In this document: piece after piece, positions 11,121 through 62,686 of the stretch | Position numbering within the stretch: the stretch's first letter is position 1 | How the letters are laid out: each line of letters opens with the position of its first letter | NCBI GenBank assembly: GCA_965223265.1 | Contig: OZ244999.1 | Location: 8,608,001-8,672,000 of the forward strand | Source: Planctomycetota bacterium | GTDB taxonomy: Bacteria > Planctomycetota > UBA8108 > SXIK01 | DNA length: 64,000 bases | Direction: 5' to 3' | Program-made: the position numbers and the translations under genes | Notes under the pieces: generated by a model | The model's input: the letters and a program-made list of their open reading frames with translations, nothing else | Databases searched by the model: none | What the model was told of the DNA's origin: nothing

Positions 11121-11133
11121 ATTCCTGTACGAT

Positions 11134-20998: not shown

Positions 20999-21004
20999 CT
21001 CGCT

Positions 21005-23815: not shown

Positions 23816-23940
23816 GGGAGATAACATTAACATCCCGAATCTTTCAGCGCTGGGCCGAAAAGTGCATAGGAATGGAATAGGCCACGCGCCGGATTGCCGA
23901 AGTAGAGAGAGAAGACGCAACCTGGGTCTCACGAATCGAC

Positions 23941-33855: not shown

Positions 33856-33891
33856 GCCGGATCTGGGAGTGAGACCCTGTAGGACGCTGAT

Positions 33892-35358
33892 ATGAAGACG
33901 AACCGAAAGAACTCCTTCTGCGGCCAAACACGCCGTGAGTTTTTCTGGCAATCTGGCGCCGGCTTCACCGGCCTGGCGCTCAGCGGCCTGCTGAGCACCG
34001 ACGGATTTTTGGCGGCGCAAACAGTCGCGGCTGATGGCAAGACCCCGTACGCGAATCCGCTCGCACCCAAGGAGTCGCACTTCACGCCGAAGGCGAAGAG
34101 TGTCATCTTTCTCTTCATGTACGGCGGCCCCAGCCATGTCGATACGTTCGACTACAAGCCCGAGCTCTACAAACTCGACGGCAAGACGATCGCGGTCAAG
34201 ACGAAGGGTCGCGCAGGATCGCGAAACCAAGGCCGCATCGTCGGCCCAAAGTGGAGCTTTCAGCGTTACGGACAATCGGGACAGTGGGTGTCGGAACTGT
34301 TCCCACATATAGCGACCTGCGTCGATGACATCTCGTTCCTCAAGTCGATGACAGCCGACTCACCGATCCACGGCTCGGCGATGCTGCAGATGAATTCCGG
34401 CCGCATTCTAAGCGGCAGTCCGGCCCTCGGCTCTTGGGTCAACTACGGACTGGGAAGCGAGAACGAGAATCTACCTGGCTTCGTCGTCATGCTTGATCCC
34501 AGCGGCGGACCGATCAGCGGCGCTAAGAACTGGAGCAGCGGCTACATGCCGGCGACCTATCAAGGCACGATTCTGCGCTCCGAGGGCGCACCGATCATTG
34601 ACCTTGAGAATCCTAAAGGCGTCAGCCGCGCCACGCAGCGGCGACTGTTGGACGCGCTCAAGGCGTACAACAACGACCACCTTGCCGCCCGAGTCGACAA
34701 CAGCAACCTGGCGGCACGCATCGCCAGCTACGAGCTTGCCTTCAAGATGCAGGCAGCGGCTCCGGAAGCGACGGATCTGAACCAGGAGGACGAGGAGACC
34801 CAAGAGCTCTACGGTCTCCATCAGGAACGCACACGCAACTTCGGCCGTCGATGTCTCATGGCGCGCCGGCTCGTCGAGCGCGGAGTGCGATTCGTGCAGA
34901 TCTACTCCGGTGGCAACCACAGCGACTACAACTGGGACGCGCACGGCGATCTAGTGAAGAACCACAATTTCCACGCCGGGAACACAGATCTGCCGATCGC
35001 TGGACTGCTGAAGGATCTCAAGCGTCGGGGCCTGCTCGACGAAACGCTCGTCGTTTGGGGCGGTGAGTTCGGCCGCCAACCGACTGCCGAGTATGCCAAG
35101 GGAACGGGCCGAGACCATAACTCGTACGGCTTCACGATGTGGGTTGCCGGAGGCGGCCTCAAAGGCGGCATCAGCGTCGGCGAGACGGACGAGCTTGGCA
35201 GCGCCGCCGTGCGCGATCGACTGCATGTGAAGAACCTTCACGCCACGATCCTGACCCAGCTCGGCCTCAATCCCGAAGCTCTGACGTATTTCTACGGCGG
35301 GCTCGACCAAAAGCTCGTCGGCGTCGAAGGTGCCGAGCCGATTCACCAGATCATGTGA
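33892..35358 (+). CDS. DUF1501 domain protein (Tat signal)
   Basis: TRREFF, AKSVIFLFMYGGPSHVDTFDYKP, LVERGVRFVQ, GGEFGR, GRDH. Confidence 0.95.
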   Translation: MKTNRKNSFCGQTRREFFWQSGAGFTGLALSGLLSTDGFLAAQTVAADGKTPYANPLAPKESHFTPKAKSVIFLFMYGGPSHVDTFDYKPELYKLDGKTIAVKTKGRAGSRNQGRIVGPKWSFQRYGQSGQWVSELFPHIATCVDDISFLKSMTADSPIHGSAMLQMNSGRILSGSPALGSWVNYGLGSENENLPGFVVMLDPSGGPISGAKNWSSGYMPATYQGTILRSEGAPIIDLENPKGVSRATQRRLLDALKAYNNDHLAARVDNSNLAARIASYELAFKMQAAAPEATDLNQEDEETQELYGLHQERTRNFGRRCLMARRLVERGVRFVQIYSGGNHSDYNWDAHGDLVKNHNFHAGNTDLPIAGLLKDLKRRGLLDETLVVWGGEFGRQPTAEYAKGTGRDHNSYGFTMWVAGGGLKGGISVGETDELGSAAVRDRLHVKNLHATILTQLGLNPEALTYFYGGLDQKLVGVEGAEPIHQIM

Positions 35359-35367: not shown

Positions 35368-37239
35368 TCAGCAAGAACGCCCGCCTTCGCTCTGAGGCTC
35401 CGTCGCCAAACGCCTTCCGGGGAGCGGTGGCAAGGATTCTTCGAGCACTCCTTTGGCGCGCGGCCAGAGGAGGAACGCTTCGATGAGCATCCACGCCTCG
35501 AGGATTAGCGTCAGGATGGCGACCGAGATCAGCACGTAGTTTCGCGGCTCTTTGTCGAGCCAGCCGCCGAGCTGGTAGATCATGGCCCATGCTGGCAGGA
35601 ACAGCATGAAGATCATCGGCAGTGCGGTGAACCACATCGGCAACCGACGACGCCAAAGCCAGAAAGTGATGACGAGGAACGAAAGTCCGCCGAGCAGCTG
35701 ATTCGTGGCGCCGAACATGGGCCACAGGATCAGCCCGCCCTTGCCGGCGTTCTCCAGCGACCACGCCGAACCAGGCACGGGCATCGCGGCCATGGTCCCT
35801 GCGACAACGACGGCGAAGATCGTGGCGCCGTGCTTGTTCGCCAGGCCGTTGAAAGGTGGGATGACGTGCCCGGAAACTTTGAACGTGCTGGCGATCTCTT
35901 GAATGACGTAGCGCTGCAGTCGGCAGGCCGTATCGAGCGTCGTGCCGGCGAACGAGGCGACGAGGACGCCCATGAGTGCGACCGCTACACCGCCGGGGAT
36001 TCCCGCAGCTTTGAGAAAATTCGCTGCGCCGTCGACGAATGCACCGATCTTGGCAGGTAGTCCCTGGGCCGCCCCCCAGGATGCGTATCGGTCGAGCCAC
36101 GCCTCTTGACCGACCAAGAACTCGCCGCCTTTCTCGATGCCGAGGCCGAGGCCGGCGCAACAGGCGAGAATCACGAGCGTAGCGAGAAAGCCTTCAGTGA
36201 GCATTGAGCCGTAGCCGACGACCTGCGCGTCGCTCTCGCATTTGAGCTGCTTACTCGTGGTACCGCTCGAAACCAGGCAATGAAAACCGCTGATGGCGCC
36301 GCAGGCGATGAAGATGAAGAGAAACGGAAAGATCATCGGCGCACCTTCTGGCCGCCACTGCACCACCGGAGCGACCAGCTCAAGCGATTGGCGCGCACCG
36401 CCGTCGCTGAGTGGTGCACCGCCAAGAAAGGCAGCGGCAGCCAGGCCGCCGACGACGAGTGCCAATGCTGTCAAGAGCTGAAGGCTGTTGATGAAATCGC
36501 GCGGCTGCAGCAGCGTCCACACCGGCAGCACCGAGGCAACGTAGGAGTAAATGAGAAGGGCGACCACCCAGGTAAAGGTACCCCAACCGGCCAGTGCGGC
36601 GTTGATATCTCCGAGGATGCCAACGTCGCCGTAGACGACACTTAGGTACATGAGGCCGAGCGCGACCAGCGACGGGATCGCAAGCGCTACACCCTTTCGG
36701 TGCAGCCACACGCCGATGGCTATGGCGAGTGGGATCTGCACGAGACAAGGGAAGATGCTTGCAGGATAGAGTTTGAACACCGCCGCAATCACAAGCCCGA
36801 AAATGGCGAGCACGATCGTCAGCGCCAGAAAGAGGATGAACAGAAATAAGAGCCGTACGCGTGGGTTCAGGACGCGTCCGGCGATGTCGCCGACCGTCTG
36901 GCCTCGATTGCGTAGACTGACGACCAGAGCGCCGAAATCATGCACAGCACCGATGAAGATCGAGCCGAGGAGGACCCAGAGGAGTGCCGGCAACCAGCCC
37001 CACATGACGGCCAGGGCCGGTCCGACGATCGGACCCGTCCCGGCGATGGATGTAAAGTGATGCCCGAACACGACGCTCTTCGCCGTCGGCACATAGTCGC
37101 GGTCGTCATTGAGCTCGACGCTCGGCACCGGTGCGTCCGGATCGAGCCGAAAGATCTTCCGCGCGAGCCAGCGGCCGTAGGTGTGATAGGCGACGAGGTA
37201 GAGAACAAACGCGCCGAGCGCGATCAGCAAGGTCGACAT
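35368..37239 (-). CDS. cstA: Carbon starvation CstA-family peptide/pyruvate transporter
   Basis: FGHHFTSIAGTGPIVGP, GAVHDFG, LLQPRD, IACGAISGFH, TTLDTACRL, WPMFGATNQLL; AGGAG RBS before ATG 37239. Confidence 0.92.
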   Translation of the reverse strand: MSTLLIALGAFVLYLVAYHTYGRWLARKIFRLDPDAPVPSVELNDDRDYVPTAKSVVFGHHFTSIAGTGPIVGPALAVMWGWLPALLWVLLGSIFIGAVHDFGALVVSLRNRGQTVGDIAGRVLNPRVRLLFLFILFLALTIVLAIFGLVIAAVFKLYPASIFPCLVQIPLAIAIGVWLHRKGVALAIPSLVALGLMYLSVVYGDVGILGDINAALAGWGTFTWVVALLIYSYVASVLPVWTLLQPRDFINSLQLLTALALVVGGLAAAAFLGGAPLSDGGARQSLELVAPVVQWRPEGAPMIFPFLFIFIACGAISGFHCLVSSGTTSKQLKCESDAQVVGYGSMLTEGFLATLVILACCAGLGLGIEKGGEFLVGQEAWLDRYASWGAAQGLPAKIGAFVDGAANFLKAAGIPGGVAVALMGVLVASFAGTTLDTACRLQRYVIQEIASTFKVSGHVIPPFNGLANKHGATIFAVVVAGTMAAMPVPGSAWSLENAGKGGLILWPMFGATNQLLGGLSFLVITFWLWRRRLPMWFTALPMIFMLFLPAWAMIYQLGGWLDKEPRNYVLISVAILTLILEAWMLIEAFLLWPRAKGVLEESLPPLPGRRLATEPQSEGGRSC

Positions 37240-37244
37240 GAAGG

Positions 37245-37314
37245 GTTCTCCTGGAACGAGGCAGAGCCCGTATCCTAACAAACGAGGCAGGCGCAGCCTA
37301 CGTTCCAGGAGAAC
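37245..37314 (-). promoter_or_regulatory. RBS-sequestering hairpin in the cstA leader
   Basis: Perfect 14-bp inverted repeat GTTCTCCTGGAACG / CGTTCCAGGAGAAC; one arm contains the SD. Confidence 0.6.
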
Positions 37315-37454
37315 AGACGGACCATTCGGTCAGAAGGGCCGGGCGCGGGCCGGCGGGAGTCGCCCATGAACTGCAGGTTCGGCTTCTTCGAAACGAACTG
37401 CCGTGTGACGCTCAGAGCCGCCAATGTGAACCGTGCGGCGACGTTTCCAGCGGC

Positions 37455-40400
37455 CTACTCACACGTGTCGAAGTCGCAGCCGAGGCTCTTGGCAGGCTCG
37501 TCATCTTGCCCACACTCGGGTGATGGGGCGTCGAGCCGTTCGCCGCCTCCGACGAACAGGTAGGTGAGCAGGAAGATCGCGTCAGAGACGTCATGATCCT
37601 CGTCGTCGTTCGCGTTGCATGCTTCGACGCACTCCGGGATGTGCTCGCCTGCGAAGAGATGGCGGAGACTGAAGATCGCGTCCGACAGATCGAGGTCACC
37701 GCTGCTGTTACAGTCACCGCGGAGGAACAACGCCTCAGCGGGGTCAACTGACTCGGGAAACGCTTTCATGCGAACGATTTCGCCAACACCTCTGTTTGAT
37801 AGCGCTAGAATCTCATCCTCAACGAGTGTGATGCCCGTGACGATGAACTCCTGGCGATCAATCGGGATTTCATAGCCGGTGAGTGATCCAGAAAGTGACA
37901 TCTCGACAATCTTGGATACCGAGGGGCACCGCGCACACCCCAAAACCTCCGCATCGAAGTCGTCGATCGTCATCGCCGTTGTCAGAAGAGTACGGCGCTT
38001 CGGCGACAGAGTCACGCCGTGATTGATCACCAGGTGATTGGGAGGCGGTAGCGGATGGGGAAATTCACGGAGAGTTCTTCCTGTGAGGTCGATTTGAGTG
38101 AAGGCGTCAGTGTTTCCTTCCATGTAGTAGAAGGTGTCCGTCAGCGGATCCCAGGTCAAACCGAGCGGCCAGCGATAGCCGAGGCCCGGCGGTGTCGTCT
38201 CTACTTCGTCGACTAGCTCACCGTCGACTGTCATGCTGGCGAGTCGAAAGAGAGCGTCCACTCCTCCACGCGAGATGATGGCATAGAGAAGGGGTTGATC
38301 GTTCTCCATCCGGATTGCGATCGTGTGAACTTGCCATCCCGGCTCGAGAGGTGCTACGAAACTGTCGAGAAAGATTAGATCCGCATCGTAGTAATAGAGC
38401 CTCGGTTCCGTTGTTCCAGCCGATAGGCGTTGAACGACGAAGAAGGTGCCGTCTGCCGGGTTGTAGGCTATCTGGCCTGGATCGACCAGAGGTTCGGTGA
38501 GTCGGCGCGTGAGCACCGCGCCGACTCCGACTGTCACCGAATCGGTCGCAAAGTCGCTCGCGATTCCCTCTCGGATGCCCTGCACCCGGTACTCGTGTCG
38601 CCCAGGCGGTGCATCTACGTCGACGTGGGCGCGGGAGCTGCCGCTCAGTTCAGCGATCTTCTCACAGCTGCGATAGACGTCGATTCGGTCGTAGGGGCCA
38701 TTGTTGACAAACGTCAGTTCGACGTTGTTCGAGTGCGTCCGCTGGCGGGCGACGAAGAGTGTCGGTCGGCGGACTTCCGGCAGCGCAGTTTCGATCGCGT
38801 GAGCTATTCTGCCGTCGAAAATGAAGAGGTCTCCACGATCGAAGTCGCCGATGAGTGCGATGTCCTGAGCGCCCGGAGAAGCAGGAGTGATCCACGATCC
38901 GGAGACGATCTCTTCTGTCTCGACGTTGAAACGGAAAATATCTGTCCTGCCGTCTGCGAAGGCACCGCTCAAGTAGAGTTCTCGCGCTCCGAGAGCATCG
39001 TTGACCGCGACACCGCTAGTGTTGAAATCCGAGGGATTCGGAAACTCAAATCGGTTGTAAGGATGAGGCAGTTCCCGAATCAAATTGCCGGCGACGTCGA
39101 GTTCGTAAAGCATACGTCGTTTTGTTTCGACGACCCAAATCGATCCTTGCCCTCCTCGGCCGCGAGCGTCGTAGGCGATGCCGCTGACGCGTCCGCGATC
39201 GACATCTTGCGCTGGGTCGGTGCCGATGCTAGGCAGTTGCGCTCCGACGCTTGACACTACGCTACCGGCATTGTTGATCGAGCCGATGCTGTGAGTTGTG
39301 GCGTTGTAGATCAGGAAACGCTCAGGAATACCCGACGGACTGAGGCCGCCAATCGAGTCCCCTTCAGCCAGAAAGAAAGAGCTGATTTCGCTGCGGCTGA
39401 TTTCCTGCAGATCGCGGCCAAGGAAGATTAGGCTCTGCCCAGTTGCGATGACCAATTCGCCGTCGTCGCTCGAGGTCATGAACCCCAAATGCCCGAGAGT
39501 TTCACTGGATGCGATGACTTGGCCGGCTCCGACGATCACGGTGCACTCGCGCGTCTGCGTCGAGTTGAAGCCTGAATAGGCTCTGACCGCTAGCTTGTGC
39601 TCTCCATCCGGGAGAGACAGCGACCAGCTTGTCGCGTCGCCTGGCACGGTAGCTAGCACCTCGCAGCCGCGGACGATTTCAATGGAATCGTACGTCTCGC
39701 TGGTAAGCCACTTGAGTTCGACGGCCGGACCAACCGCGCTACACTGAAGATCGCGAAGCGGCAAGAAGCTCGGTTCACCGCTTTCGAACACAAGGAATCG
39801 ACTGCCGACGACCGTCGTGCATACGTACGCGTCGAAGATCTCTCCGCTCTCTGGGTGGCGAAATGGCCGACTCAGTAGGCTGTTGACTTCACCTCCTGCT
39901 TGCCGCAAGGAGATGGAGGTTTCCGCGATCTCGCCGAGCGCGTTCAGTCGTAGAATCGCATAGCGGTCGTCGCTGCTCCCGAGGAGATGGAAGCCGCTCA
40001 GCTCGCCTTCTTTTTTGATGGGTTCGACGTCATTGAATCGAACGCGAGATTCTGCACCGAGAACAGCTTCGATTTCAGAGCGATCGGGGAAGGATCGTAG
40101 CGTCACGCCGTCCAGCGTCGTTTCCAACACGGACGCCCCTTCGTTCATGACGACGTAGATCGACCCGTTCCCGTCGTTCCCTCCCGCATCGAAGGCCAGC
40201 CCCATGGCGTCTCGCGACTCGAAGTCAATAATGCGGTCGGTCGGCGCGCCGTCCTTGGTGATCTCATGGAGCTCGCCGCTTAGCGCGTCCATGACGAGAA
40301 GTGTCCCGTCGATGCTGTTGATCGTGATGCCGTACGCGAACGATGCGACAGCGTTCTCGAAGGGAATCGGCACCGTTTTGATCACGGTGGTCAGCTCCCG

Positions 40401-41468
40401 GTTGTACTGATAGACCTCGAATTCGGTAGCGCTAGTGACCCAAAAGGTGTCGTCGACATCGTCGTGTGCCATGTCGACCGGTCCTACTGCTTCGGAGGAT
40501 AGGTGTGCCACAAGTTGTCCGGGCTCGCCCGTAAGAACTGGCGAGACGGCAGCGAGACCGAGCGAAAGTGTCGCTGCCAAGAGGCGACGGGATCGTTCCA
40601 TTGCTCTTCCTTTCGGTTCAGAGGCCTGCTGTGTATCAACGGAACTCCGCGTTGACGATGATCCTTGGGCGCGCTGTTGATCAGCACGAAGGGAGACGTC
40701 GTCAGGGGGGCGACTCGGTCCTGCGAGCAAAAGCAGAACGGTCGCTACCGAGACGATTACATACGGGGACGACTTCGCGATGATCTGCGGAGCAGAATGC
40801 CAGAGCCCTGCCGCGTCGTTTTCGGGCGCTGGAGCGAGGGGGCCTCGTTCAACAACACGTGCCTCGAGGTCCCTCGACGGAGCACCGGGCATCTCCCTGG
40901 CGCCGACGAGCGCCAATTCTGTGACAACGATCGCGGTTCCCGCGCCGCCGACAAGGCGCTGCAGCTGATTCTTGGCTCGGTGAACTCGACTACCAACCGT
41001 TTTGACAGGCACACCGGTGATCGATGCGATCTCTTGGTAAGAGAGTCCCTCGAACATACGGAGGTGAATCGTGAGACGGAATTCCTCCGGCAGCTGATCG
41101 ATGCAGTCGTAGAGAAGTTGGCTTTCCTCCTGCGAAAGCACCGTCTCCGCTGTACTGGGCTCAACGAGGTCGCGCTCCCGCCCAGCACGGTTCTCATGAA
41201 AAGACCTGGTCTTTTCCCGCCGCAGGATTGATCGAGCGACGTTGAGAACTGTCTTCAACACAAAGGCGCGCGGGTTCTTGACGTTGGCCGACTTGGTTGT
41301 GGCACGAGAAAGTCTCAAGAAACTCTCCTGAACGACATCTTCCGCCATGTCTTCAGACGGGACGATGCGTCGAGCCATGCGCGTCACAGTCTCGATGTAA
41401 GCGCTGACGAAGGCACTGAATCGAACACGGTCACGTCGATCGAGATAAGAGATGAACGGGTCACTCAC
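37455..41468 (-). CDS. ECF sigma factor fused to TM + extracellular beta-propeller/FN3-like repeats + C-terminal dockerin-like domain
   Basis: AEDVVQESFLRL (region 2); LPEEFRL..EGLSYQEIASITGVPVKTVGSRVHRAK (region 4); TM YVIVSVATVLLLLAG; FLRGDCNSSGDLDLSDAIFSL..C..ACNANDDEDHDVSDAIFLL. Confidence 0.88.
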   Translation of the reverse strand: MSDPFISYLDRRDRVRFSAFVSAYIETVTRMARRIVPSEDMAEDVVQESFLRLSRATTKSANVKNPRAFVLKTVLNVARSILRREKTRSFHENRAGRERDLVEPSTAETVLSQEESQLLYDCIDQLPEEFRLTIHLRMFEGLSYQEIASITGVPVKTVGSRVHRAKNQLQRLVGGAGTAIVVTELALVGAREMPGAPSRDLEARVVERGPLAPAPENDAAGLWHSAPQIIAKSSPYVIVSVATVLLLLAGPSRPPDDVSLRADQQRAQGSSSTRSSVDTQQASEPKGRAMERSRRLLAATLSLGLAAVSPVLTGEPGQLVAHLSSEAVGPVDMAHDDVDDTFWVTSATEFEVYQYNRELTTVIKTVPIPFENAVASFAYGITINSIDGTLLVMDALSGELHEITKDGAPTDRIIDFESRDAMGLAFDAGGNDGNGSIYVVMNEGASVLETTLDGVTLRSFPDRSEIEAVLGAESRVRFNDVEPIKKEGELSGFHLLGSSDDRYAILRLNALGEIAETSISLRQAGGEVNSLLSRPFRHPESGEIFDAYVCTTVVGSRFLVFESGEPSFLPLRDLQCSAVGPAVELKWLTSETYDSIEIVRGCEVLATVPGDATSWSLSLPDGEHKLAVRAYSGFNSTQTRECTVIVGAGQVIASSETLGHLGFMTSSDDGELVIATGQSLIFLGRDLQEISRSEISSFFLAEGDSIGGLSPSGIPERFLIYNATTHSIGSINNAGSVVSSVGAQLPSIGTDPAQDVDRGRVSGIAYDARGRGGQGSIWVVETKRRMLYELDVAGNLIRELPHPYNRFEFPNPSDFNTSGVAVNDALGARELYLSGAFADGRTDIFRFNVETEEIVSGSWITPASPGAQDIALIGDFDRGDLFIFDGRIAHAIETALPEVRRPTLFVARQRTHSNNVELTFVNNGPYDRIDVYRSCEKIAELSGSSRAHVDVDAPPGRHEYRVQGIREGIASDFATDSVTVGVGAVLTRRLTEPLVDPGQIAYNPADGTFFVVQRLSAGTTEPRLYYYDADLIFLDSFVAPLEPGWQVHTIAIRMENDQPLLYAIISRGGVDALFRLASMTVDGELVDEVETTPPGLGYRWPLGLTWDPLTDTFYYMEGNTDAFTQIDLTGRTLREFPHPLPPPNHLVINHGVTLSPKRRTLLTTAMTIDDFDAEVLGCARCPSVSKIVEMSLSGSLTGYEIPIDRQEFIVTGITLVEDEILALSNRGVGEIVRMKAFPESVDPAEALFLRGDCNSSGDLDLSDAIFSLRHLFAGEHIPECVEACNANDDEDHDVSDAIFLLTYLFVGGGERLDAPSPECGQDDEPAKSLGCDFDTCE

Positions 41469-41543
41469 GGATGATTCCCCTGAGCTCTATTTTCTTCCCC
41501 AGAAATTGCTCGCGAGCATCCGAAGCGTGTCGCAAGTCGATGG

Positions 41544-44039
41544 CTAGAAACAGGTGGAGTCGCGGCAGATCCGAAGTCGATCTGGCGTTGGATCTTCGCC
41601 ACAACGAAAGAGGTCGGCGCTAAACGGGCGATCGACACCAGCGAAGAGAAAGTTCAAGATCGCGATCGCGTCAGCCGCGTTGACGATTCCATCGTCGTTG
41701 AAGTCTGCAGCGTCGGGGCATGCGGGTGCACGGCCCCCACGAAAGAGATGGTTCAGAACGAAGACTGCATCAGAGATGTCAGGCTTTCCGCCGGAGTCTG
41801 CGTCGCCGCGGCGAAAGAGCGGCCCCGGACTCGTTCCACGAATTCCGTGAAGCACTGAAATCGAGCGTGACCCGAAGTCTGCGGTTACAGCGTCGACGAC
41901 GTCGTCGCCATCGAAGAACCCGATCGCAATCGAACGCGGTGAGATTCCCACCGGGCGCTTTTCGATCTCGGCGGCGAAACCCCGCTCCAGCCCGCGGGCG
42001 ATCAATACGGCATCGATACCGCCAGCAAGAACGTCAAGGAAACCATCGCCGTCGACGTCTGCGACGGCCAGTGGATTCAGCTCGGTGCCGAAGTCGAGCT
42101 CGCGCGTCGCTGCTGGGTCAGGCTCGTCCGCGAGAGGGTCGTAGATCACGACGACCTTCGTGCGCTGGACCGCGACGAGGTCGTCACTGCCGCTACCATC
42201 GAGGTCAGCCAACGCGATGCTCGCCGCTGCGCGGAGCGCAGAGAGATTGTGAGCTCTCTCAAGGCCGCCGTTGCCGTCACCTCGTAAGATGGAGATCCCA
42301 CTCGATATCGCCGCCGCAGCGTCGAATGCGCCGTCACCGTCGGCGTCGCCGACGGCCAGGGAGATGGGTGGCTCCCCGATCGCGATCCGCGTCTTGGGCC
42401 CCATCTCGTGAATGCCTCGCTCTGAGAGAGGTCGAAGCACGAGTACCAGTTGGTCGGAGGCGAGGTCGCCAATCAACAGGTCGCTGTGCGCGTCGCTGTC
42501 GAAATCAGCGGCGGCGATCAGAGACGGAAGTGGGCTGCCGGGCACGGCGATCCACTGCTCCTCCACGGCTAGGGGATTACCTATGATGACTTCGCCGTGA
42601 GAGAGGTCACTCACTGCGATTTCGTCGACGCCGTCGCCGTCGAAATCGCCCGCGACCATTTCTTGAAACGCTCGACCCTGAAAGTGCGTCTCGTTCACGT
42701 CGTTTGACCCAGACGTCGCCAGGAGCGCTGTGGCACTGAGCGCGACGAATCTGTGCTCGCTTTTGTCTCTTTCTGCAAGGACCAACAAGGCGCGCGGCGG
42801 CTGTTTGAGCGGGACGACCGTGCGCGTCGCTAAGCGGCCGTTCGAAAGACCAGGTATGACACCGAGTGTTTCGAGCGTTCGCCATGTCGCCACCGTGTCC
42901 ACAATTCCATCGCGGTCCACGTCGTGACGAGACAGACTGGCCACCTCGTCGTCCAAGAAGATGTCACGCGGAGTGAACGAACCCGTGCCGCTGCCGAGAT
43001 GAACGCGCACGCCGTGATTGCCGAATCGCTGCAGTGGACTGATGATGTCGATCGTTCCGTTCGCGTCAAAATCATCGACGAGCAAAAAACCGGTGAAGAA
43101 GCCGGCCTTCGCTCCTGACGACGCGCCGACCGTCGCGACGTTGAACCCACGAGCCTCGCCGTTGTTCGTCAGCAGTAAGAGAGTGTCGTCACCTGTCAGC
43201 GTGACCAGATCGGGATGGCCATCGCGATTGAAATCTTCGGCGGCGACGATGCGCGGTACGACGGCAAAGCCGAGATCTGATCTCTCGGCGAGGTGGAACG
43301 TGCCGTCACCGCGGCCGTGAAAGCGACTGATGAAACCGTGATTATTGCTCTCTTCGCGGTGCGCCACGGCGACGTCGAGCAGGCCGTCGCTGTCGAAGTC
43401 ATGCAGCGCGAGCGAGTGGGGGTTGTCGCCGACCGAGACGCGCTCGACTCGACGAAGGCTCCCGCGACCGTTTCCCAGCAAGACGTCCATTGTGCTCGAA
43501 GCCAGGTTTGTGACGACGGCATCGAGCCAGCCGTCGCGATTGAAGTCGCCGAGCTCAATGAGTCTGGGGCTGGTGCCGACGTCGGTCGCTCCTGAAACCT
43601 CAAAGCTCCCATCACCGCGATTGAGGAGCGTCGTCACGTTGTCGGAGCCGCTGTTGACGACCAGCAAATCCGGTGAGCCATCGCTGTCCAAGTCGCCGCT
43701 TGCAACGCTGATCGGTCCAAGCCCAACGCCGTAGTCCACCGGGACTCCGAACAGTTTCTGCGAGGCGCCCAGGAACACCCGCGTCGCACCAGCCGCCTCC
43801 TGGGTTACGGCGACGTCGAGCCAGCCGTCGAGGTTAAAGTCATCCACGACGTGCGTAGCAGCCGGTTCGGTCAGCTCGAAAGACTGCGTTCCCTGGAAGA
43901 GATTCTGCGCTTGAGTCTTGCCGACGCGACCGCAGATGATGCCAAGAACGATGAGCGATGCCAGGGTCACGAAACAACCGTGCCGCTCAGTTCGACGATA
44001 GAGTGTGCGCCGATCCGACGCGAGGAAGCGACGGAGCAT
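41544..44039 (-). CDS. Secreted FG-GAP/VCBS-repeat protein with C-terminal dockerin-like domain
   Basis: More than 10 GDF[ND]xDGxxD repeats; LFRRGDADSGGKPDISDA..CPDAADFNDDG; GGAGG RBS before ATG 44039. Confidence 0.9.
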   Translation of the reverse strand: MLRRFLASDRRTLYRRTERHGCFVTLASLIVLGIICGRVGKTQAQNLFQGTQSFELTEPAATHVVDDFNLDGWLDVAVTQEAAGATRVFLGASQKLFGVPVDYGVGLGPISVASGDLDSDGSPDLLVVNSGSDNVTTLLNRGDGSFEVSGATDVGTSPRLIELGDFNRDGWLDAVVTNLASSTMDVLLGNGRGSLRRVERVSVGDNPHSLALHDFDSDGLLDVAVAHREESNNHGFISRFHGRGDGTFHLAERSDLGFAVVPRIVAAEDFNRDGHPDLVTLTGDDTLLLLTNNGEARGFNVATVGASSGAKAGFFTGFLLVDDFDANGTIDIISPLQRFGNHGVRVHLGSGTGSFTPRDIFLDDEVASLSRHDVDRDGIVDTVATWRTLETLGVIPGLSNGRLATRTVVPLKQPPRALLVLAERDKSEHRFVALSATALLATSGSNDVNETHFQGRAFQEMVAGDFDGDGVDEIAVSDLSHGEVIIGNPLAVEEQWIAVPGSPLPSLIAAADFDSDAHSDLLIGDLASDQLVLVLRPLSERGIHEMGPKTRIAIGEPPISLAVGDADGDGAFDAAAAISSGISILRGDGNGGLERAHNLSALRAAASIALADLDGSGSDDLVAVQRTKVVVIYDPLADEPDPAATRELDFGTELNPLAVADVDGDGFLDVLAGGIDAVLIARGLERGFAAEIEKRPVGISPRSIAIGFFDGDDVVDAVTADFGSRSISVLHGIRGTSPGPLFRRGDADSGGKPDISDAVFVLNHLFRGGRAPACPDAADFNDDGIVNAADAIAILNFLFAGVDRPFSADLFRCGEDPTPDRLRICRDSTCF

Positions 44040-44457
44040 AGTTCCTCCCGATGGTTTGCACCCGGCGCTCGACACGTTCCGCAGGTCAACTCACCGCGCC
44101 CATCTTATAGCTGGATCCGCACCGACGCTATCTGCGCTCGTGAAACCGTGCGATCGACGAAGCCGATCGAATGCAGCCGGGTTCACTAAAGAGACTCGCG
44201 GCGGCCGAAGTTTCTTCCCGAGAAGTCAGGTGAGAGGAGCGAATGCGCCGAAAGCGACTCGCTGTCGTGAGTCCCTCGGGTGCGGCGTGCGTCTGTCAGC
44301 AGCGCTGTTGGGCTTCGTCGACGATTCGCACTAAGCTCTAGGGTCGATCCTTTCCCGCACGGGTTCGGGGATCGGACCCGCGGAGAGAGGATCGATGAGG
44401 TTTCTGAGCGCCGAAACTCCAGACGGCTCAATTTGCGTCAGTCGTTAGTTTCGCAGC

Positions 44458-47400
44458 TTACTCGTCCGGCCTAATCACGATCGTTGGCTCACCATTCTCG
44501 TTGCGATTCTTGGCAAGATCGTGGAGCTGCGTGAGCGCTTGGTCGAGCGCGGCGACCGCGATGTCGCCGGGAATCGTGTCTCCACCAAAGAAGTACTCCC
44601 ATACGAATGCCGCCGCCGCCCCCGGCGACGAAAGCACCGCGGCTACCACGGGGTCGTCGTTGTCGACGATCTTCAGAAGTGCGGTCGCCGCGCCTTGCCA
44701 GGTCAGTGTCACGACGAAGCCGTAGTAGGGGATTGCCGCAACCGCACCGTCGACGGCTGCGGCGCCTGCTTGCTCGAAGTGAAGGCGTCGCGTCAGCGGG
44801 TTGTTCGCGCCAGCCGCTTGGTGGAGATAGTAGCCCGCCTCGATGGCGCCGACGGCCAGGGCCGCTACGGCGCCGGCTTTGGTCGGACGCCCGCGCATGG
44901 CGGCGCGGAGTTCGTACACCTCACCACCGAGGTCGATGAGAGTCGTTGCGAGCATGACGATCGCCTTCACCTCATCGCCATCTCGGTACGCGATCCAGGC
45001 TTCGCGCGCGCCGATGACGGCTTTGCCGGCAGCTGCTACTCCCTCGAGCTTGTCCATGATCCTAAGGCGTCGTCGCGAGCCGTGTAAGATTTCGGAATCG
45101 TTCGTGTCCGCCACCACTTCGACGCGCGTCGTCACCCGCCGGGTCTCGAATCGGGCCGGCTCGTCGAAGCTGTTTTTGATCATGACGTCGACGTCTTCGT
45201 ACTCGCTAATTCGATAGACGTACCCACCGCTTCCGTCGCGCAGTTTGTCGACTTCAACGATCGGCGTCGGCCGGGGCCACTCGTGCCACAGGCGCTCGTA
45301 GCGCTGCTTTGCGGTCGCCGTCCACTCGATGAACTGGGCGGTCGTGTCGGGCACCGCGTCCCACTTTGCCGCCAGGCTTCCGGTGGAATCGAGCTGATTG
45401 AGCCAGTGACTGGTCGCTTGCTTGAACGTGCGCACGTCATTGCCGTTGCCGTCAATGGTCTCGACGTACCACGTGCAGTCTCCGGTCTCGGTGCAGCTGA
45501 TTTGTTCCTCGATGATTTGGGCGACGTCGCCGTCCCGTGTTGAGACGATCAGGATCGCGTCGACAGCCTCCGTAGTGAGGGCAGTCGGGTCGACGCTGGC
45601 GGTTGGGTTATCGAGTCGGTTGACGACGTGAACTGTGGTTCCGTCTTCACTCATCCAGTTGCCATTCGGCAGCGTGCCGAGCTGCTCTGGGAGGACGCTG
45701 AGAAGGTGGTCGATGTCGCGATCCATTTTCGCCACCAGACTGGTCGCGGCGATGGGGATTTCATGGACGAAAGCTGCAACCGAGAGGTCGCTAGGATCAA
45801 TGGACGTCCGCTGGTTGATTCCACCGCTGACGTAGACCCAAAGCGGTGACAGGTAGAGCCAAGCCGTGCGAGCGTCACCGTCGGCGGTTGTGGCTTCCAT
45901 CGTCGCTTCGCTCGCTGGAAGGCGGATCTTCACCTCGTAGGCGTTGTCGCCGATCTCGCTCGCCAAGGCGACTGCGGTGTGGAGGTGATCGCCGTTCAGC
46001 ATGTCGCTACTAGCGAAGAAACTCGCCTGAAACGCGGGTCGTTTGAAGGTGGCGCCAGTGCGGAAGCCAAGATCGGCCTCGGGGTCGATTGCGAACTGAA
46101 TCACATACGTGTTTTCGGTGTCGAGCGCGACGCGAACCGGTGCGAAGTGAAACCGGTAGGGTGTCCCAAAGGCATCTTCAATTTCAGTGGCAGTCACATT
46201 CGTCAATCGGACGTTGTATTTGTGAAATCGATTGGTGTAGTCGATGCGGTATTCCTTCTGGTGAAAGCAGTCGTAGTTGGTGTAGTACGGTGCCGCCGCA
46301 CTCGAGGTCCAGCTGCCATCCCTCGTTGCGGTGTAGGCGGAGTACGGCGTGTCCGATGAAATGAGATCGTTGATCTCGGCGACGATTTTTGACTCCGTGA
46401 CGTCGCTTTCCTGGACGGCATCGTTGTCCGAGGACCTCCAATCGACACCCTCGTAGCCGCACGTGATGGTGTAGTCGTGCTTGACCACCTCGGCTTCACC
46501 GGTGAGTGAGCCGACGAGATAGGTCTGTTGAAAGTTCAGGAATCCCGCCGGGTGAACGGTCTCCCAAAACCCTGATTCGTCAGCGGCGGTGTAGCGCACT
46601 GTCGGCGATCGGTCGACTCCATCGAGGACACCGTCACCGTCGCTGTCTGGATCGGTGGGGTCCGTGCCTAGGGCGAGCTCTCGACCGTCGAAGGCGCCGT
46701 CGTCGTCGCTGTCGCGATCGAGGATGTTCACGTCGCCGTCGCCGTCGCTATCGGCGAAGGGGTCCGTCCAGCCGTTCAGTTCGTCGAGGTCAGCCCAACC
46801 GTCCAAGTCGGAATCATCAAGGCGCGGATTGAGCCCGTACGATTCTTCGTCGAGGTCGCTGATGCCGTCAGCATCGTCATCGTCGTCGCTGTCCGCGTTG
46901 TCGCCTGTGCCATCTGCATCCGTGTCCCACCACTCGTTCGGATCGTCGGGGAAGGCGTCTGGTGAATTGCCATTGGCATTGTCGCCGTAGCCATCACCGT
47001 CACGGTCGTCGTGCTGGGTCGCGTCTAGTTGAAAAGCATCTTCGGTGTCGAGGAAGCCATCGCCATCGTCGTCGTCATCTTCGTGATTGACGATGCCGTC
47101 GCCATCCGTGTCCCCGATGAGAACGGCGATCACAGTGTTGGAGCGTGCCTCGATGAGTTCTCCGGTTTGGGGGTGTCGGTAAGTGACTTCGAGATAGACC
47201 GGGAGGTCACCTTCGCGTTGATAGAGGTGGATGACGTCAGCAGCGACTTCAGCCGTCTCTCCGTCGCCGAAGTGCCAGATCGCGCTCTCGATCGGCCAAT
47301 CGACGCCCCAACGCACGCGGCATGTCACCACGGCGGGAGGCTCGATGAAGTCGTTCTCCACCCAAATTCGCGGCGCTGTGCCATCGACACTGAAGTTGCT

Positions 47401-49659
47401 GTCGTAGTTGAACCAGCCGCCGTTGACACTGTTCTGTCCGAGTGCCCAGCCGCTAGCGTAGACGATGCGGTAGGCGATGTCGTTCTCCGTGAGGACGCCA
47501 TGGCTCGAGAGAGTCGCCCATTCGAAGACCACCGTACGCACGGCGCCGCTGACGTGACTTTCGCCCCCGAGCGTGCCGATGTATTCGTTGCCGCTGTCCG
47601 CAATGTCTGGCTGCTTGTAGAAACCCGCGTTCTTATCCCAAACGAGAAGACCACGGTGTCGCGCCGGGTCGTCGGAGCCGTCGCGAAGGTTAATCCAAAT
47701 GAGAACCTGTTGGACGGCTTGGTCGGGGTCGGGGAATCGGAGGCTAAACTGTTGCCTGTCGATGGAGTCGCTCGAAATGACCTCTTGTGCGTGCCAGGCG
47801 TCGACGCCGTTAGGAAACTCGCTCACGTTGACCGTGACACGGTCGGTCGTGCGCTCGCCGTCGTCATCGACCGCGACGAGTGAGACCGTATAGCGCCCGG
47901 AGGTCGGAAAGTACGTCTCGAGGGTCTGGATTCCCTCAAAGCTGCGCCCATCACCAAGCTCCCAGCGTCTGAGGACGAGGTGCCCGTCGTCGTCACGCAG
48001 CGTCGCTGGCAGCGAGAAGAGCTCTCCCTGAGCGACGTGGATCTCGTCCGCCGCGTCGATCGTCGCGATGGGTGGCTCGTTGGGGCCGGGAACACCAACA
48101 CCAAAGGTGGCACGGGCGAAGCCGTAGGACGTTCGGCCTTCCGCGCCGTATGAGATGGGGCGGAAGTGGACGGTGTGGAGCCGGTCGTTGGCGAACGAGC
48201 CGCTGACCTTTTTCCAACCGCCGCCGCAGCCGGTGTACTCGTCGGTGGCCGTCGTTTCGAACGTGCCGTTACCGTCGAGGTCGAACTCCCACGCATTCGC
48301 ATTCCCCGTTCCGCTCCTGGCATAGAGGGTGAGAGCGGCTGAGCCGCCGGCGCCGTTCGCGATGCTCGCACCATCGAGGAGCGCGCAGTCTTTGTCTGGG
48401 TTGACGTAGAAAATACCCGACGCCAGTGGGCAATCGCCGCCTTGCAGCACCACGGTCGTCGACCATTCGTCTGTGGCCCCGTCCTCGTCGGCAACCATGA
48501 TGCGGACGTCGTAGTTGCCGCAGCCGGGGTAGTCGTGCACCCAGACCTTGCGACCGGCGTAGTTGCACTGGGCGTTGGCGGCGAACGTACCGTCGCCGAA
48601 GTCGATGGAATAGGAAACAACTTCGCCGTCCGGATCAGTGGCCGAGACGAAGAATCCCATGGTGTATGCAGTCTTTGGGCGGCCCGTACACCAATTCGTC
48701 GCCAGAGGCACCTGGGTGCCAGTGCGATGGTCCGTGAAAATCCGAGGCGGTTGATTCTCACTGACGGTGATCGTTGTGACTTCGGTTGAATCGGCACCGT
48801 CAGTGTCAGTAACGCGTAGGCCGATGCTGAAGGAGCCGAGAACGAGATCGTTGAGACGGAGTGTGGGGCCTGTCGCGTCGTCGTAGCCGCCGTCGGCGTC
48901 GAGGTCCCACTCGTAGAGGGCGATGTCATCGCCTGGATCGCTCGACGACGAGGCGTCGAGAGCGAGATCTTCACCTTCTTTGACCGAGTACGGTCCACCC
49001 GCGTCGGCGGTCGGTGCGACGTTGTGCAAAGTGATCGTCGCCGTGTCAGTGTCGATGCCGAGGCGTGCATCGATGACTTTCAGACCGACGGTGACCCGTC
49101 CCGATTCATTGCTCGTGTAGAGCACGGTCGGACCGAAGCCATCGTCGTACTCGCCATCACCATCCAGGTCCCAGCGAAACGAGAGCGCGTCGCCGTCCGG
49201 ATCGCTCGACGCGGACCCATCGAGAATGATCCCACCACCTTCGTCGATCTGGTAAGTTCCACCAGCATCCGCAACGGGATCCTCGTTCTCTGCGATGATC
49301 GCTTCGCAGCGCTCGAACGAAGTGCAGCTCAGAAAGTCAGCGGTCGGGTCCTCGCCACAGTTAGGAAACGGTGCGGGTGGCTCCGAATCGCCGACGAAGA
49401 GATAGAGCAGGGTGTACATCGGGTCGGAGATGTCCATGGTCCCGTCGTCGTTGCTGTCGCCCGCGGCGAGACAGGTAGGCTCAGTTCCGCCCTCGGTGAA
49501 CAGATACTCCAAACTGAAGATGGCGTCGGAGATGTCGACTGCCCCATCGACGTTGACGTCGCTGCGAACGAACTGACTCTGCGCGCCCATGTCGGTGCCA
49601 ACTAAGAAGAGGACGAGAAGCGTGAGCGTGAAGGCGAATCGGTGTAGACTGGTGGCCAT
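44458..49659 (-). CDS. Large secreted protein: N-terminal dockerin, PKD/Ig domains, TSP3-like Ca-binding repeats, unknown C-terminal region
   Basis: Signal peptide; FVRSDVNVDGAVDISDA; P.ADAGG.Y, WDLDGDG, WHFGDGET PKD motifs; DxDGDG/DAFPDDP repeats. Confidence 0.85.
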   Translation of the reverse strand: MATSLHRFAFTLTLLVLFLVGTDMGAQSQFVRSDVNVDGAVDISDAIFSLEYLFTEGGTEPTCLAAGDSNDDGTMDISDPMYTLLYLFVGDSEPPAPFPNCGEDPTADFLSCTSFERCEAIIAENEDPVADAGGTYQIDEGGGIILDGSASSDPDGDALSFRWDLDGDGEYDDGFGPTVLYTSNESGRVTVGLKVIDARLGIDTDTATITLHNVAPTADAGGPYSVKEGEDLALDASSSSDPGDDIALYEWDLDADGGYDDATGPTLRLNDLVLGSFSIGLRVTDTDGADSTEVTTITVSENQPPRIFTDHRTGTQVPLATNWCTGRPKTAYTMGFFVSATDPDGEVVSYSIDFGDGTFAANAQCNYAGRKVWVHDYPGCGNYDVRIMVADEDGATDEWSTTVVLQGGDCPLASGIFYVNPDKDCALLDGASIANGAGGSAALTLYARSGTGNANAWEFDLDGNGTFETTATDEYTGCGGGWKKVSGSFANDRLHTVHFRPISYGAEGRTSYGFARATFGVGVPGPNEPPIATIDAADEIHVAQGELFSLPATLRDDDGHLVLRRWELGDGRSFEGIQTLETYFPTSGRYTVSLVAVDDDGERTTDRVTVNVSEFPNGVDAWHAQEVISSDSIDRQQFSLRFPDPDQAVQQVLIWINLRDGSDDPARHRGLLVWDKNAGFYKQPDIADSGNEYIGTLGGESHVSGAVRTVVFEWATLSSHGVLTENDIAYRIVYASGWALGQNSVNGGWFNYDSNFSVDGTAPRIWVENDFIEPPAVVTCRVRWGVDWPIESAIWHFGDGETAEVAADVIHLYQREGDLPVYLEVTYRHPQTGELIEARSNTVIAVLIGDTDGDGIVNHEDDDDDGDGFLDTEDAFQLDATQHDDRDGDGYGDNANGNSPDAFPDDPNEWWDTDADGTGDNADSDDDDDADGISDLDEESYGLNPRLDDSDLDGWADLDELNGWTDPFADSDGDGDVNILDRDSDDDGAFDGRELALGTDPTDPDSDGDGVLDGVDRSPTVRYTAADESGFWETVHPAGFLNFQQTYLVGSLTGEAEVVKHDYTITCGYEGVDWRSSDNDAVQESDVTESKIVAEINDLISSDTPYSAYTATRDGSWTSSAAAPYYTNYDCFHQKEYRIDYTNRFHKYNVRLTNVTATEIEDAFGTPYRFHFAPVRVALDTENTYVIQFAIDPEADLGFRTGATFKRPAFQASFFASSDMLNGDHLHTAVALASEIGDNAYEVKIRLPASEATMEATTADGDARTAWLYLSPLWVYVSGGINQRTSIDPSDLSVAAFVHEIPIAATSLVAKMDRDIDHLLSVLPEQLGTLPNGNWMSEDGTTVHVVNRLDNPTASVDPTALTTEAVDAILIVSTRDGDVAQIIEEQISCTETGDCTWYVETIDGNGNDVRTFKQATSHWLNQLDSTGSLAAKWDAVPDTTAQFIEWTATAKQRYERLWHEWPRPTPIVEVDKLRDGSGGYVYRISEYEDVDVMIKNSFDEPARFETRRVTTRVEVVADTNDSEILHGSRRRLRIMDKLEGVAAAGKAVIGAREAWIAYRDGDEVKAIVMLATTLIDLGGEVYELRAAMRGRPTKAGAVAALAVGAIEAGYYLHQAAGANNPLTRRLHFEQAGAAAVDGAVAAIPYYGFVVTLTWQGAATALLKIVDNDDPVVAAVLSSPGAAAAFVWEYFFGGDTIPGDIAVAALDQALTQLHDLAKNRNENGEPTIVIRPDE

Positions 49660-49801
49660 TGTTCGTTCCCCCGTGCTGTCATGTGCGTTTGTGCTGATAC
49701 GGGATGGAACGTCATCGAGGAGAGATTCTGCCCCTGGCGTTCGCCGCTCGCGTTTTCCCCACGACGAACGATCCACACAGCTGTAGGAGTTAGAACAGCT
49801 T

Positions 49802-50380
49802 ATGTCTATGAACCCCGGAGACGCGGACGAGACGACGAAGCGCGCAAAGCTCGGCGTCGTGACGGTCTCAGACCGCGCCAGCCGCGGCGAGTACGAGGAC
49901 CGTGGCGGGCCCGCGATCCGTGCCTATCTCGAGGATGTGCTGACGTCCGCTTGGGAGCCCGTGGTGCGGGTTGTGGCCGACGAGTGTGCCCTGCTTGAGG
50001 CGACGCTCAAAGAACTCTGCGACGTCGAACGCTGCGCGCTGGTGGTGACGACGGGTGGCACGGGTCCGGCGGCGCGAGACATTACGCCTGAGGTGACCGA
50101 GACGGTCTGCGACAAGCTGATGCCGGGATTCGGCGAGCTCATGCGTAAGGTCTCGCTCGAGAAAGTTCCGACCGCGATTCTCTCGCGACAGACGGCCGGC
50201 ATCCGTGGCCGCTCTCTGATCGTCAACCTGCCAGGTCAACCCAAGGCGATCGCCGAGTGTCTCGATGCAGTGTTTCCTGCGATTCCATACTGCGTCGATT
50301 TGATCGGCGGACCGTATTTGACGACGGATGAGTCAAGGATCGTCGCCTTTCGTCCACAGAAGAAGAAATCTCACCGCTAG
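49802..50380 (+). CDS. mog: Molybdopterin adenylyltransferase
   Basis: VTVSDRASRGEYED, TTGGTGPAARDITPE, PGFGELMR, PTAILSRQ, NLPGQPK. Confidence 0.95.
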   Translation: MSMNPGDADETTKRAKLGVVTVSDRASRGEYEDRGGPAIRAYLEDVLTSAWEPVVRVVADECALLEATLKELCDVERCALVVTTGGTGPAARDITPEVTETVCDKLMPGFGELMRKVSLEKVPTAILSRQTAGIRGRSLIVNLPGQPKAIAECLDAVFPAIPYCVDLIGGPYLTTDESRIVAFRPQKKKSHR

Positions 50381-50413
50381 TCGAACAACTGCTGCACCGC
50401 GAAGGAGCTTACC

Positions 50414-62458: not shown

Positions 62459-62686
62459 GATCGTTCTCCTTGGTGGGATGCGAAAGTCCGACCCGGCGGA
62501 CGGTCTGGTCGTTGTTCCGAGCTCAAACCTTCTACGATCAATCGAACAAAAGCAAACGAAGGGGGCTTCAACCGACAGTCTCACCCGGGACGCTGTTGTC
62601 AACGAACCAACAGGCGTCGCACCTTACAATGGTCCACCGCGTTCGGAGAGGTGAGTGAAGAGGCGAATCGCTCGCCGAATTCGACG

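Follow-up and report, generated by a model that had tools for sequence, protein, structure and literature searches.

The window analysed here is a stretch of 64,000 nucleotides from a planctomycete genome (Planctomycetota bacterium, assembly GCA_965223265.1, contig OZ244999.1, positions 8,608,001 to 8,672,000), and our subject is one open reading frame (ORF) at 37455..41468 on its minus strand. The frame is uninterrupted, with 0 stops within 1337 codons, and encodes the core of an extracytoplasmic function (ECF) sigma factor, a membrane helix and an ectodomain of approximately 1020 amino acids, which is composed of three NHL-type beta-propellers, two fibronectin type III (FN3)-like sandwiches and a dockerin-like tail. 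An earlier note, made from the letters of the stretch, had proposed that this protein might link docking on a cohesin scaffold, or ligand binding, to proteolytic release of the sigma factor. We found the same arrangement in six distantly related proteins, as well as stand-alone secreted homologues whose start and signal peptide are still present inside the fusion. The features of the fusion gene are listed below, in window positions.

37455..41468, minus strand: entire ORF, starting with GTG, of 1337 codons and a stop codon
41211..41408, minus strand: sigma region 2, residues 21-86 (Pfam Sigma70_r2, 36.4 bits, cut-off 24; AlphaFold2 predicted local distance difference test score, pLDDT, 93-98)
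40962..41120, minus strand: sigma region 4, residues 117-169 (Pfam Sigma70_r4_2, 54.7 bits, cut-off 25.7; pLDDT 85-90)
40785..40955, minus strand: juxtamembrane segment, residues ~172-228 (poorly conserved, no Pfam match, pLDDT below 50)
40716..40784, minus strand: conserved transmembrane helix, residues ~229-251 (Kyte-Doolittle 1.86; AlphaFold2 helix 235-249)
40602..40715, minus strand: polar low-complexity linker, residues 252-289 (non-coding-like composition)
40599..40613, minus strand: Shine-Dalgarno (SD)-like AAAGGAAGAG then the ATG of M290 (ATG at 40601, motif 3 nt before)
40527..40601, minus strand: signal-peptide-like segment, residues 290-314 (MERSRR, Ala/Leu-rich core, small residues before EPGQ)
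39783..40514, minus strand: beta-propeller 1, NHL-type, residues ~319-562 (PknD sensor, YjiK and virginiamycin B lyase match at profile positions 34-175; AlphaFold2 strand blocks)
39531..39755, minus strand: FN3-like beta-sandwich 1, residues ~572-646 (similarity to sandwich 2; AlphaFold2)
38790..39518, minus strand: beta-propeller 2, NHL-type, residues ~651-893 (TRIM71, Thin and Brat NHL match at profile positions 373-469, best E 6.9e-17; AlphaFold2)
38499..38762, minus strand: FN3-like beta-sandwich 2, residues ~903-990 (similarity to sandwich 1; AlphaFold2)
37764..38480, minus strand: beta-propeller 3, residues ~997-1235 (AlphaFold2 strand blocks; weak SdiA-regulated/SGL matches here in relatives)
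37458..37733, minus strand: C-terminal dockerin-like module, residues 1246-1337 (two loop-helix segments, with a tail rich in Cys and Pro)

An ECF sigma factor core fused to a secreted protein in seven diverged lineages

Sigma regions 2 and 4, as read in the earlier note, both pass the curated Pfam cut-offs. The core as a whole is modelled with a pLDDT of 85-98, and the general ECF model of NCBIfam (TIGR02937, sigma70-ECF) scores 79.5 against a cut-off of 42.9. No Pfam match to region 3 or region 1 was found in the fusion protein at E<=0.1, and the N-terminus therefore has the composition of an ECF (group 4) sigma-70 factor, with sigma2 and sigma4 but neither sigma3 nor sigma1. All NCBIfam subfamily and equivalog models stayed under their own cut-offs for this core, the top one being NF058625 (93.1 against 130).

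Word-index searches gave just three homologues of the ectodomain, together with distant stand-alone sigma factors, and fused relatives surfaced only in an exhaustive profile search, in which 41 of the 150 listed representatives covered at least 900 profile positions and were taken as the full-length set. Seven of these 41 (the window protein included) carry an N-terminal extension of 275-300 amino acids, with Sigma70_r2 and Sigma70_r4_2 at the same positions in every one, and the remaining 34 are unfused, stand-alone secreted proteins. The six fused relatives (P0042, P0044, P0048, P0054, P0060 and P0071) are only 31-36% identical overall to the window protein, whose N-terminus aligns with their Met starts. 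Pairwise identity among the seven is 42-52% in the sigma cores, 10-26% in the linkers and 29-38% in the ectodomains, and the canonical sigma residues are invariant. The best stand-alone sigma factor found is 36% identical over the core. A hidden Markov model (HMM) of the sigma core gives the fused cores 251-273 bits and stand-alone sigma factors at most 96, having been built from those same seven proteins; run on the collected proteins, it revealed no further member of the ectodomain family with a sigma core. The single chain of ECF sigma core, helix and exported propeller ectodomain with a dockerin-like tail, as claimed earlier, is thus real and recurs in six further representatives. Homologues that are always two genes, the outcome which the earlier note had named as fatal to its proposal, are not what is seen.

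The stand-alone homologues start at the position of M290, which alone would suggest two genes run together, and the composition just upstream of M290 is odd. An assembly or gene-calling artefact joining two separate genes is nevertheless extremely improbable, given the absence of stops from the frame, the occurrence of the same fusion in six independent, distantly related representatives, and the other two frames, which over codons 170-300 contain stops and no sigma tail. The frame remains open through an unconserved linker of approximately 120 codons in seven diverged lineages, which rules out an assembly artefact and argues for selection on the fusion. The fusion is genuine, and the single-chain arrangement has been kept by evolution.

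In a quick IQ-TREE tree, built without bootstraps from 45 ectodomains (34 unfused, P0005-P0007, P0176 and the seven fused ones, trimmed; partial matches excluded), all seven fused rows fell into one clade of 12 rows with a support of 100 in the SH-aLRT branch test, and no shuffle of the labels in 500 clustered the fused rows as tightly. The other five rows of this clade are unfused (P0006, P0036, P0043, P0050 and P0051). The fused or unfused state needs a minimum of three changes on the tree, and well-supported branches force at least two.

Alternatively, the fusion might have no signalling role, being the outcome of neutral capture of a downstream gene or of repeated loss of the stop codon between tandem genes for a sigma-helix protein and a secreted protein; the ectodomain would then do nothing regulatory. 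Many C-terminal extensions of planctomycete ECF sigma factors are argued to be captured neighbours in the relevant passages of PMC7671368, the linker is unconserved, unfused proteins lie inside the fused clade, and the ectodomain works alone, as the unfused relatives show. However, the fusion persists in seven clusters less than 50% identical with the sigma residues intact, an open linker in all seven would be unexpected without selection, and the fused sigma cores form a tight group of their own (with the bit scores above, from a model of the same seven). We therefore regard a fusion without a signalling role as unlikely.

A profile scan of genome contigs gave three loci (L001-L003), all from metagenome-assembled genomes of Planctomycetota; none is fused or belongs to the window's own genome, and L003 is a partial match only. 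These loci and a gene pair typical of planctomycetes (31060-35358, described below) help to place the window in that phylum. The L001 homologue is stand-alone and adjoins a divergently oriented chorismate synthase gene, and the L002 homologue, also stand-alone, lies after a 2322-aa PKD protein; neither has a sigma gene beside it.

Membrane helix and topology

A Kyte-Doolittle scan of the whole protein gave three hydrophobic segments, at residues 172-190, 229-247 and 296-314, of which the middle one alone keeps its strong hydrophobicity throughout the seven fused proteins. This helix, which corresponds to the hydrophobic membrane segment claimed earlier, lies at the equivalent place in each of them, 25-60 residues past sigma region 4, with Kyte-Doolittle values of 1.4-2.6, approximate octanol-scale sums of -1.3 to -9.2 kcal/mol and a net positive charge on its N-terminal flank. 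A polar stretch of 40-60 residues follows it. The segment 172-190 is markedly hydrophobic in the window protein and P0042 only, and a three-helix topology with this segment as the first helix was rejected as the main model on that ground.

The third segment belongs to a unit which resembles a signal peptide and is found in all seven fused proteins, and in which a Met (replaced by Val in P0060) is followed by a stretch rich in Arg and Lys, a core rich in Ala and Leu, small residues and (E/D)PG(D/E/Q). Taken as a 19-residue membrane span, the core of this unit is unfavourable or neutral in six of the seven. Because it appears too weak to cross the membrane again, and because only one helix is conserved, the simplest topology would have the sigma core inside, a single helix, and everything past the helix outside.

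The presence of a signal-peptide-like unit raises the possibility of release coupled to export. The internal signal peptide would direct the full-length chain to export, signal peptidase would cut after the small residues before the EPG motif and free the ectodomain, site-2 or signal-peptide peptidases would clear the sigma-bearing remnant, and one sigma factor would be released per export event. Site-2 protease does clear signal-peptide remnants. Small residues occupy positions -3 and -1 before (E/D)PG in most fused proteins (e.g. TAA/EPGD, VPA/EPGD and GYA/DPGE), and the positive stretch ahead of the hydrophobic core obeys the positive-inside rule. Nevertheless, the upstream helix, present in all seven, would itself start translocation and leave the signal peptide on the outer side, the wrong geometry for signal peptidase, and the alternative hairpin of helix and signal peptide is unsupported by the octanol sums in six of the seven proteins. 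Export-coupled release is accordingly quite improbable in our judgement.

A retained internal start at M290

The earliest homologues collected (P0005-P0007, 1059-1164 aa) lack a sigma domain, and their signal peptide, with which residues 290-314 of the window protein align, begins exactly at the position of M290. The earlier note overlooked that residue 290 is the conserved start of the stand-alone homologues and the beginning of their signal peptide, and this opens a reading in which one ORF gives two products.

Several properties of the junction bear on this reading. An SD-like 5-mer such as the one in AAAGGAAGAG, 3 nt before the ATG of M290, precedes just 7 (2.8%) of the 246 ATGs that lie in frame inside 32 window ORFs, and many ATG-start genes of the window do show SD-like motifs. 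The Met is kept 25-39 residues ahead of (E/D)PG in six of the seven fused proteins, the exception being the Val of P0060, while the remaining linker is just 10-26% identical and contains 4 Met in 620 residues. Positions 2-6 before the retained Met are occupied by Gly, Glu, Asp, Lys or Arg in all seven, which is what an in-frame purine-rich ribosome-binding site would be expected to encode. Moreover, the G+C content at third codon positions (GC3) of codons 261-300 is 0.425; of 1526 segments of forty codons, taken from 30 ORFs of the window, just 3 are as low (mean 0.713, sd 0.081). Such a dip fits a former intergenic region or a translation-initiation region. No informative ribosome-binding site was seen upstream of the L001 homologue.

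Taken together, the SD-like motif, the kept Met, the residues before it and the GC3 dip suggest that the translation start of the captured gene is still used in the fused forms. With a retained ribosome-binding site, start codon and signal peptide, it is plausible that the ectodomain is also made as a second, free secreted product.

A stronger form of this idea, in which the M290 start would be the main source of secreted ectodomain and the upstream start would give a minor sigma-tethered isoform that reports occupancy, is possible and we advance it tentatively. The same properties of the junction favour it, as does the conservation of the positive stretch, hydrophobic core and small -3/-1 residues as in unfused homologues. 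On the other hand, the SD-like motif alone is weak, as 27 of the 246 internal ATGs (11%) in the same 32 ORFs are preceded by some SD-like 4-mer, and there could be structural reasons why a relic of a signal peptide persists. The two-product reading and that of a membrane-tethered sigma factor overlap and do not exclude each other.

Propellers and sandwiches of the ectodomain

An AlphaFold2 model of residues 290-1337, based on a 45-row family alignment, has a mean pLDDT of 86.4 and a predicted template modelling score of 0.81, and consists of three all-beta blocks of approximately 240 residues with two 7-strand sandwiches between them and a C-terminal helix pair. The 45-member family profile matches solved NHL propellers (TRIM71 6.9e-17, Thin 6e-16, PknD sensor 9.2e-9, YjiK 4e-7), and these matches occupy two separate places in the profile. 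By profile similarity and by its all-beta bladed fold, the ectodomain thus belongs with the NHL-repeat beta-propellers, and the three propeller-like blocks described earlier have a counterpart in both analyses. The two FN3-like repeats of that description are likewise related to each other (direct BLASTP E=2e-8, 15 of 47 residues identical); a BLASTP comparison of the whole protein with itself detected no repeats, whereas the direct comparison of the pair found the similarity.

With the whole ectodomain as query, Foldseek returned generic multi-propeller proteins (such as LRP2, Sevenless/ROS1 and DDB1) with E about 1e-19. Their global TM-scores reach only 0.15-0.21, so that the arrangement as a whole is without a solved counterpart. 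A search of the ESM Atlas gave no usable match.

A sister branch of the ectodomain family (21 tree rows) includes longer proteins with three matched stretches, such as P0007, P0035, P0037 and P0040. P0007 owes its extra length to an inserted third FN3-like repeat, immediately ahead of the dockerin-like module.

The dockerin-like C-terminal module

The C-terminal module contains two Asp/Asn-rich 12-residue loops, DCNSSGDLDLSD and NANDDEDHDVSD, each followed by a DAIF..L..LF helix, and AlphaFold2 predicts helices at 1261-1273 and 1294-1306. These would form two tandem calcium-loop-plus-helix segments, as in dockerins. The earlier note had called the module a dockerin and had named failure to match dockerin profiles as evidence against this. 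The window protein itself indeed gives no match to Pfam Dockerin_1 (PF00404; gathering cut-off 22.9 bits) at E<=0.1, but the assignment holds better at the level of the family: two relatives pass the cut-off (P0044 with 24.5 bits and P0041 with 24.8 bits), others score below it (the L001 homologue 20.2, P0060 19.0, P0007 18.4 and P0042 16.6 bits), and the family profile finds type I dockerins of solved structure (E values: 2mte_A 0.001, 1daq_A 0.0011, 4uyp_B 0.0089, 3ul4_B 0.018 and 2y3n_B 0.069). We therefore call the module of the window protein dockerin-like only. No cohesin family matched any of the 35 window ORFs scanned, and with a tail that is only dockerin-like the cohesin scaffold suggested in the earlier note stays a conjecture.

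An HMM of the module found it in 138 of the 182 collected proteins, a set itself chosen by similarity to the family profile. Among the dockerin-like modules of the 95 proteins that do not belong to the family, 92 are C-terminal, 24 N-terminal and 36 internal. The fused relative P0071 is without the module and ends at residue 1278 in a short unrelated tail, which may reflect a truncated gene call or a real loss.

Proposed origin and mechanism of a probable membrane-held sigma factor

The seven fused proteins have a sigma core, a helix and an extracytoplasmic domain in one ORF, which is the organisation of known hybrids of the IutY and ECF52 type. As distant relatives keep this arrangement, the fusion is probably a one-protein device for signalling from the surface to genes, of a known general kind. 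We lean towards reading the ORF as a genuine single-chain membrane-tethered ECF sigma factor of evolutionarily kept arrangement, from which the sigma core would be released by proteolysis.

With regard to origin, a unit of sigma core and helix would have taken in the gene for a secreted protein that lay downstream in frame. Such an event corresponds to scenario (d) for planctomycete ECF sigma factors (Pinto and da Fonseca 2020, PMC7671368), which, as summarised there, has a sigma unit insert upstream of a gene and sequester it in frame. The extension of the window protein has non-ECF homologues in the phylum, and the captured start, M290, is in frame.

In the mechanism that we propose by analogy with known systems, the sigma core would be cytoplasmic, held at the membrane and hence inactive, with the ectodomain outside. 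An event at the ectodomain, either ligand binding or docking through the terminal module, would control cleavage in the exposed linker, and intramembrane cleavage of the helix would then free the sigma core, in parallel to IutY. Likely targets would be the protein's own cluster of genes, which encode proteins with dockerin-like modules. A second product, the same ectodomain made from the retained start and secreted free, would be compatible with the tethered form. A further elaboration, which we consider doubtful, is that one ORF makes free and sigma-tethered copies of the ectodomain, and that the tethered copy is a built-in reporter which competes with the free one for docking sites or ligand and is cleaved when undocked or occupied, so that transcription of the cluster would follow the state of extracellular assembly. 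Sensing of this kind, if true, would be without a described precedent among sigma factors.

Several observations weigh against a tethered, proteolytically released sigma factor. No anti-sigma domain, FecR-like or zinc-finger, was matched by Pfam between sigma region 4 and the helix (residues 172-228), and a scan of 35 window ORFs brought up no gene for an anti-sigma factor, a protease or a cohesin. Residues 177-330 have no confident AlphaFold2 fold (pLDDT <50, with an alignment of only seven sequences). The positive stretch of the retained signal peptide reaches about +8 in P0054, which is awkward for a segment that has to cross the membrane after the helix. Five of the 12 rows in the clade of the fused proteins lack the fusion, so that the tree requires no fewer than 2-3 gains or losses, and the reading frames of the fused relatives rest on the gene calls of others. 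Finally, a promoter and terminator scan over 37000-50500 gave nothing above shuffled expectation and marked no operon.

The closest systems in print are one-chain sigma factors. IutY of Pseudomonas putida (ECF243) is described in PMC8999054 as a sigma/anti-sigma hybrid released by Prc and RseP; like the window protein, it is a single polypeptide with an ECF sigma factor, a segment across the membrane and a periplasmic domain, and its sigma factor is activated by proteolytic release. In contrast to the window protein, in which no anti-sigma domain was detected, it contains an anti-sigma portion of the FecR type and acts in TonB-dependent cell-surface signalling; in the window protein, three propellers and a dockerin-like tail make up an outer part of 1020 aa, which has homologues that are secreted on their own. 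SCO4117 of Streptomyces coelicolor (ECF52) and the related groups ECF48 and ECF53 are sigma/transmembrane hybrids according to the same paper (PMC8999054). In SCO4117 the sigma factor is joined through transmembrane helices to a probably ligand-binding extracytoplasmic domain and proteolytic activation is proposed, but the group is actinobacterial and carries a zinc-finger anti-sigma domain, a region rich in proline and a carbohydrate-binding domain, features which Pfam did not find in the window protein. The captured-gene sigma factors of PMC7671368 share with it an extension that has non-ECF homologues in the phylum and a captured start that is still visible; as portrayed in that paper they are recent, lineage-specific duplications with unrelated extensions, whereas the window fusion is old (seven clusters below 50% identity) and has a conserved helix. 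Four collected proteins (P0180, P0181, P0182 and P0024) have ECF cores fused to other, unrelated C-terminal extensions, with lengths of 619-1481 aa, that of P0180 containing CarboxypepD_reg-like and other domains, in agreement with the published view of such extensions as common and varied.

Other systems resemble the window protein in part. PknD of Mycobacterium tuberculosis (1rwi_B) has an extracellular six-bladed NHL-type propeller, one helix and a cytoplasmic signalling domain; it differs in being a Ser/Thr kinase with a single propeller, where the window protein has a sigma factor and three. In the planctomycete ECF01-Gob, the extra domain is reported by Jogler and colleagues in 2012 to be a membrane helix with a WD40 propeller. 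If this is right, planctomycete ECF sigma factor, helix and beta-propeller would occur in one chain in that case too, and the difference would lie in the three NHL-type propellers and the FN3-like and dockerin-like modules of the window protein. An extra C-terminal domain of ECF01-Gob of Gemmata is mentioned in the relevant part of PMC5766207. SigI/RsgI of Clostridium thermocellum, as outlined in the literature, also connects a sigma factor with a sensing domain outside the cell, and its organism has cohesin-dockerin biology, but it consists of two proteins, of which SigI is not an ECF sigma factor and RsgI carries carbohydrate-binding modules and no dockerin. The 'planctosome', a hypothesised cohesin-dockerin system of freshwater Planctomycetes (PMC6461901), likewise has non-cellulosomal dockerin modules on secreted planctomycete proteins. 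It includes, as outlined there, cohesin-bearing scaffolds and peptidases and no sigma factor, while a scan of 35 ORFs of the present window found no cohesin.

No published fusion that joins an ECF sigma factor to a dockerin appeared in the titles and abstract openings of full-text matches, and supplementary tables of ECF classifications may list the protein. One-chain hybrids (IutY and SCO4117, PMC8999054) and planctomycete gene capture are both in print, so that the earlier statement of no characterised example is valid for this particular ectodomain and does not hold for the general principle. What appears to be new is an old, conserved family with an ECF core, a helix, a triple NHL propeller and a dockerin-like module, still bearing the start and signal peptide of the captured gene.

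Membrane-spanning one-chain sigma factors have few studied cases, and planctomycete signalling is almost untouched experimentally. The family offers a natural comparison, with the same ectodomain of approximately 1020 aa standing free in 34 representatives and, in seven, joined to a sigma factor with the old start retained. It makes testable how a captured secreted protein turns into a sensor, whether planctomycete dockerin-like modules join a regulated surface assembly, and whether internal initiation supplies free and tethered isoforms. The sigma core could also reveal the regulon of a cluster of genes for large surface proteins of unknown role.

Gene neighbourhood and the rest of the window

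No cognate anti-sigma gene adjoins the fusion gene, which lies between the genes for CstA and an FG-GAP protein bearing a dockerin-like module. The two genes upstream of it are as follows.

41544..44075, minus strand: upstream neighbour, FG-GAP repeat protein with a C-terminal dockerin-like module (FG-GAP_3, 2.1e-44)
44458..49776, minus strand: next gene upstream, for a PKD-repeat protein of 1772 aa whose dockerin-like module is N-terminal (PKD_4, 1.4e-47; Dockerin_1 19.0 bits at 72-118, under the cut-off)

The PKD-repeat protein, the FG-GAP protein and the sigma fusion are encoded by three consecutive minus-strand genes, all with a dockerin-like module. In the FG-GAP protein (843 aa) the module HMM matches residues 753-837 with E=1.4e-25, and Dockerin_1 gives 19.3 bits, under its cut-off. 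Another FG-GAP protein of the same genome, P0179 (1801 aa), ends in the same module (E=1.7e-28 at 1711-1795), and the genome thus encodes further proteins with dockerin-like modules outside the window. At L002 the unfused homologue (8216-10726) is preceded by the gene for the 2322-aa PKD protein (1311-8279), with an overlap of 64 nt. A PKD gene thus lies upstream of the homologue there as it does in the window, a hint that the sigma unit inserted into a gene cluster which is conserved in part.

The next gene downstream of the fusion gene, likewise on the minus strand, encodes a homologue of the carbon starvation protein CstA (35368-37281, E=6.3e-126). Long ORFs of up to 942 aa without a Pfam match at the thresholds used occur at 51903-54731 (minus), 9363-12729 (minus), 57173-58885 (plus), 60578-62602 (minus) and 1010-5897. 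Four plus-strand genes at 17856-24978 encode a TonB-dependent receptor, an ABC-type substrate-binding protein, a hybrid histidine kinase (HAMP-HisKA-HATPase-receiver-Hpt) and a response regulator with an HD domain, and look like a separate signalling cluster. A PSCyt1/PSCyt2/PSD1 protein (31060-33855, plus strand) is followed by a DUF1501 protein (33892-35358, plus strand), a typical planctomycete pair.

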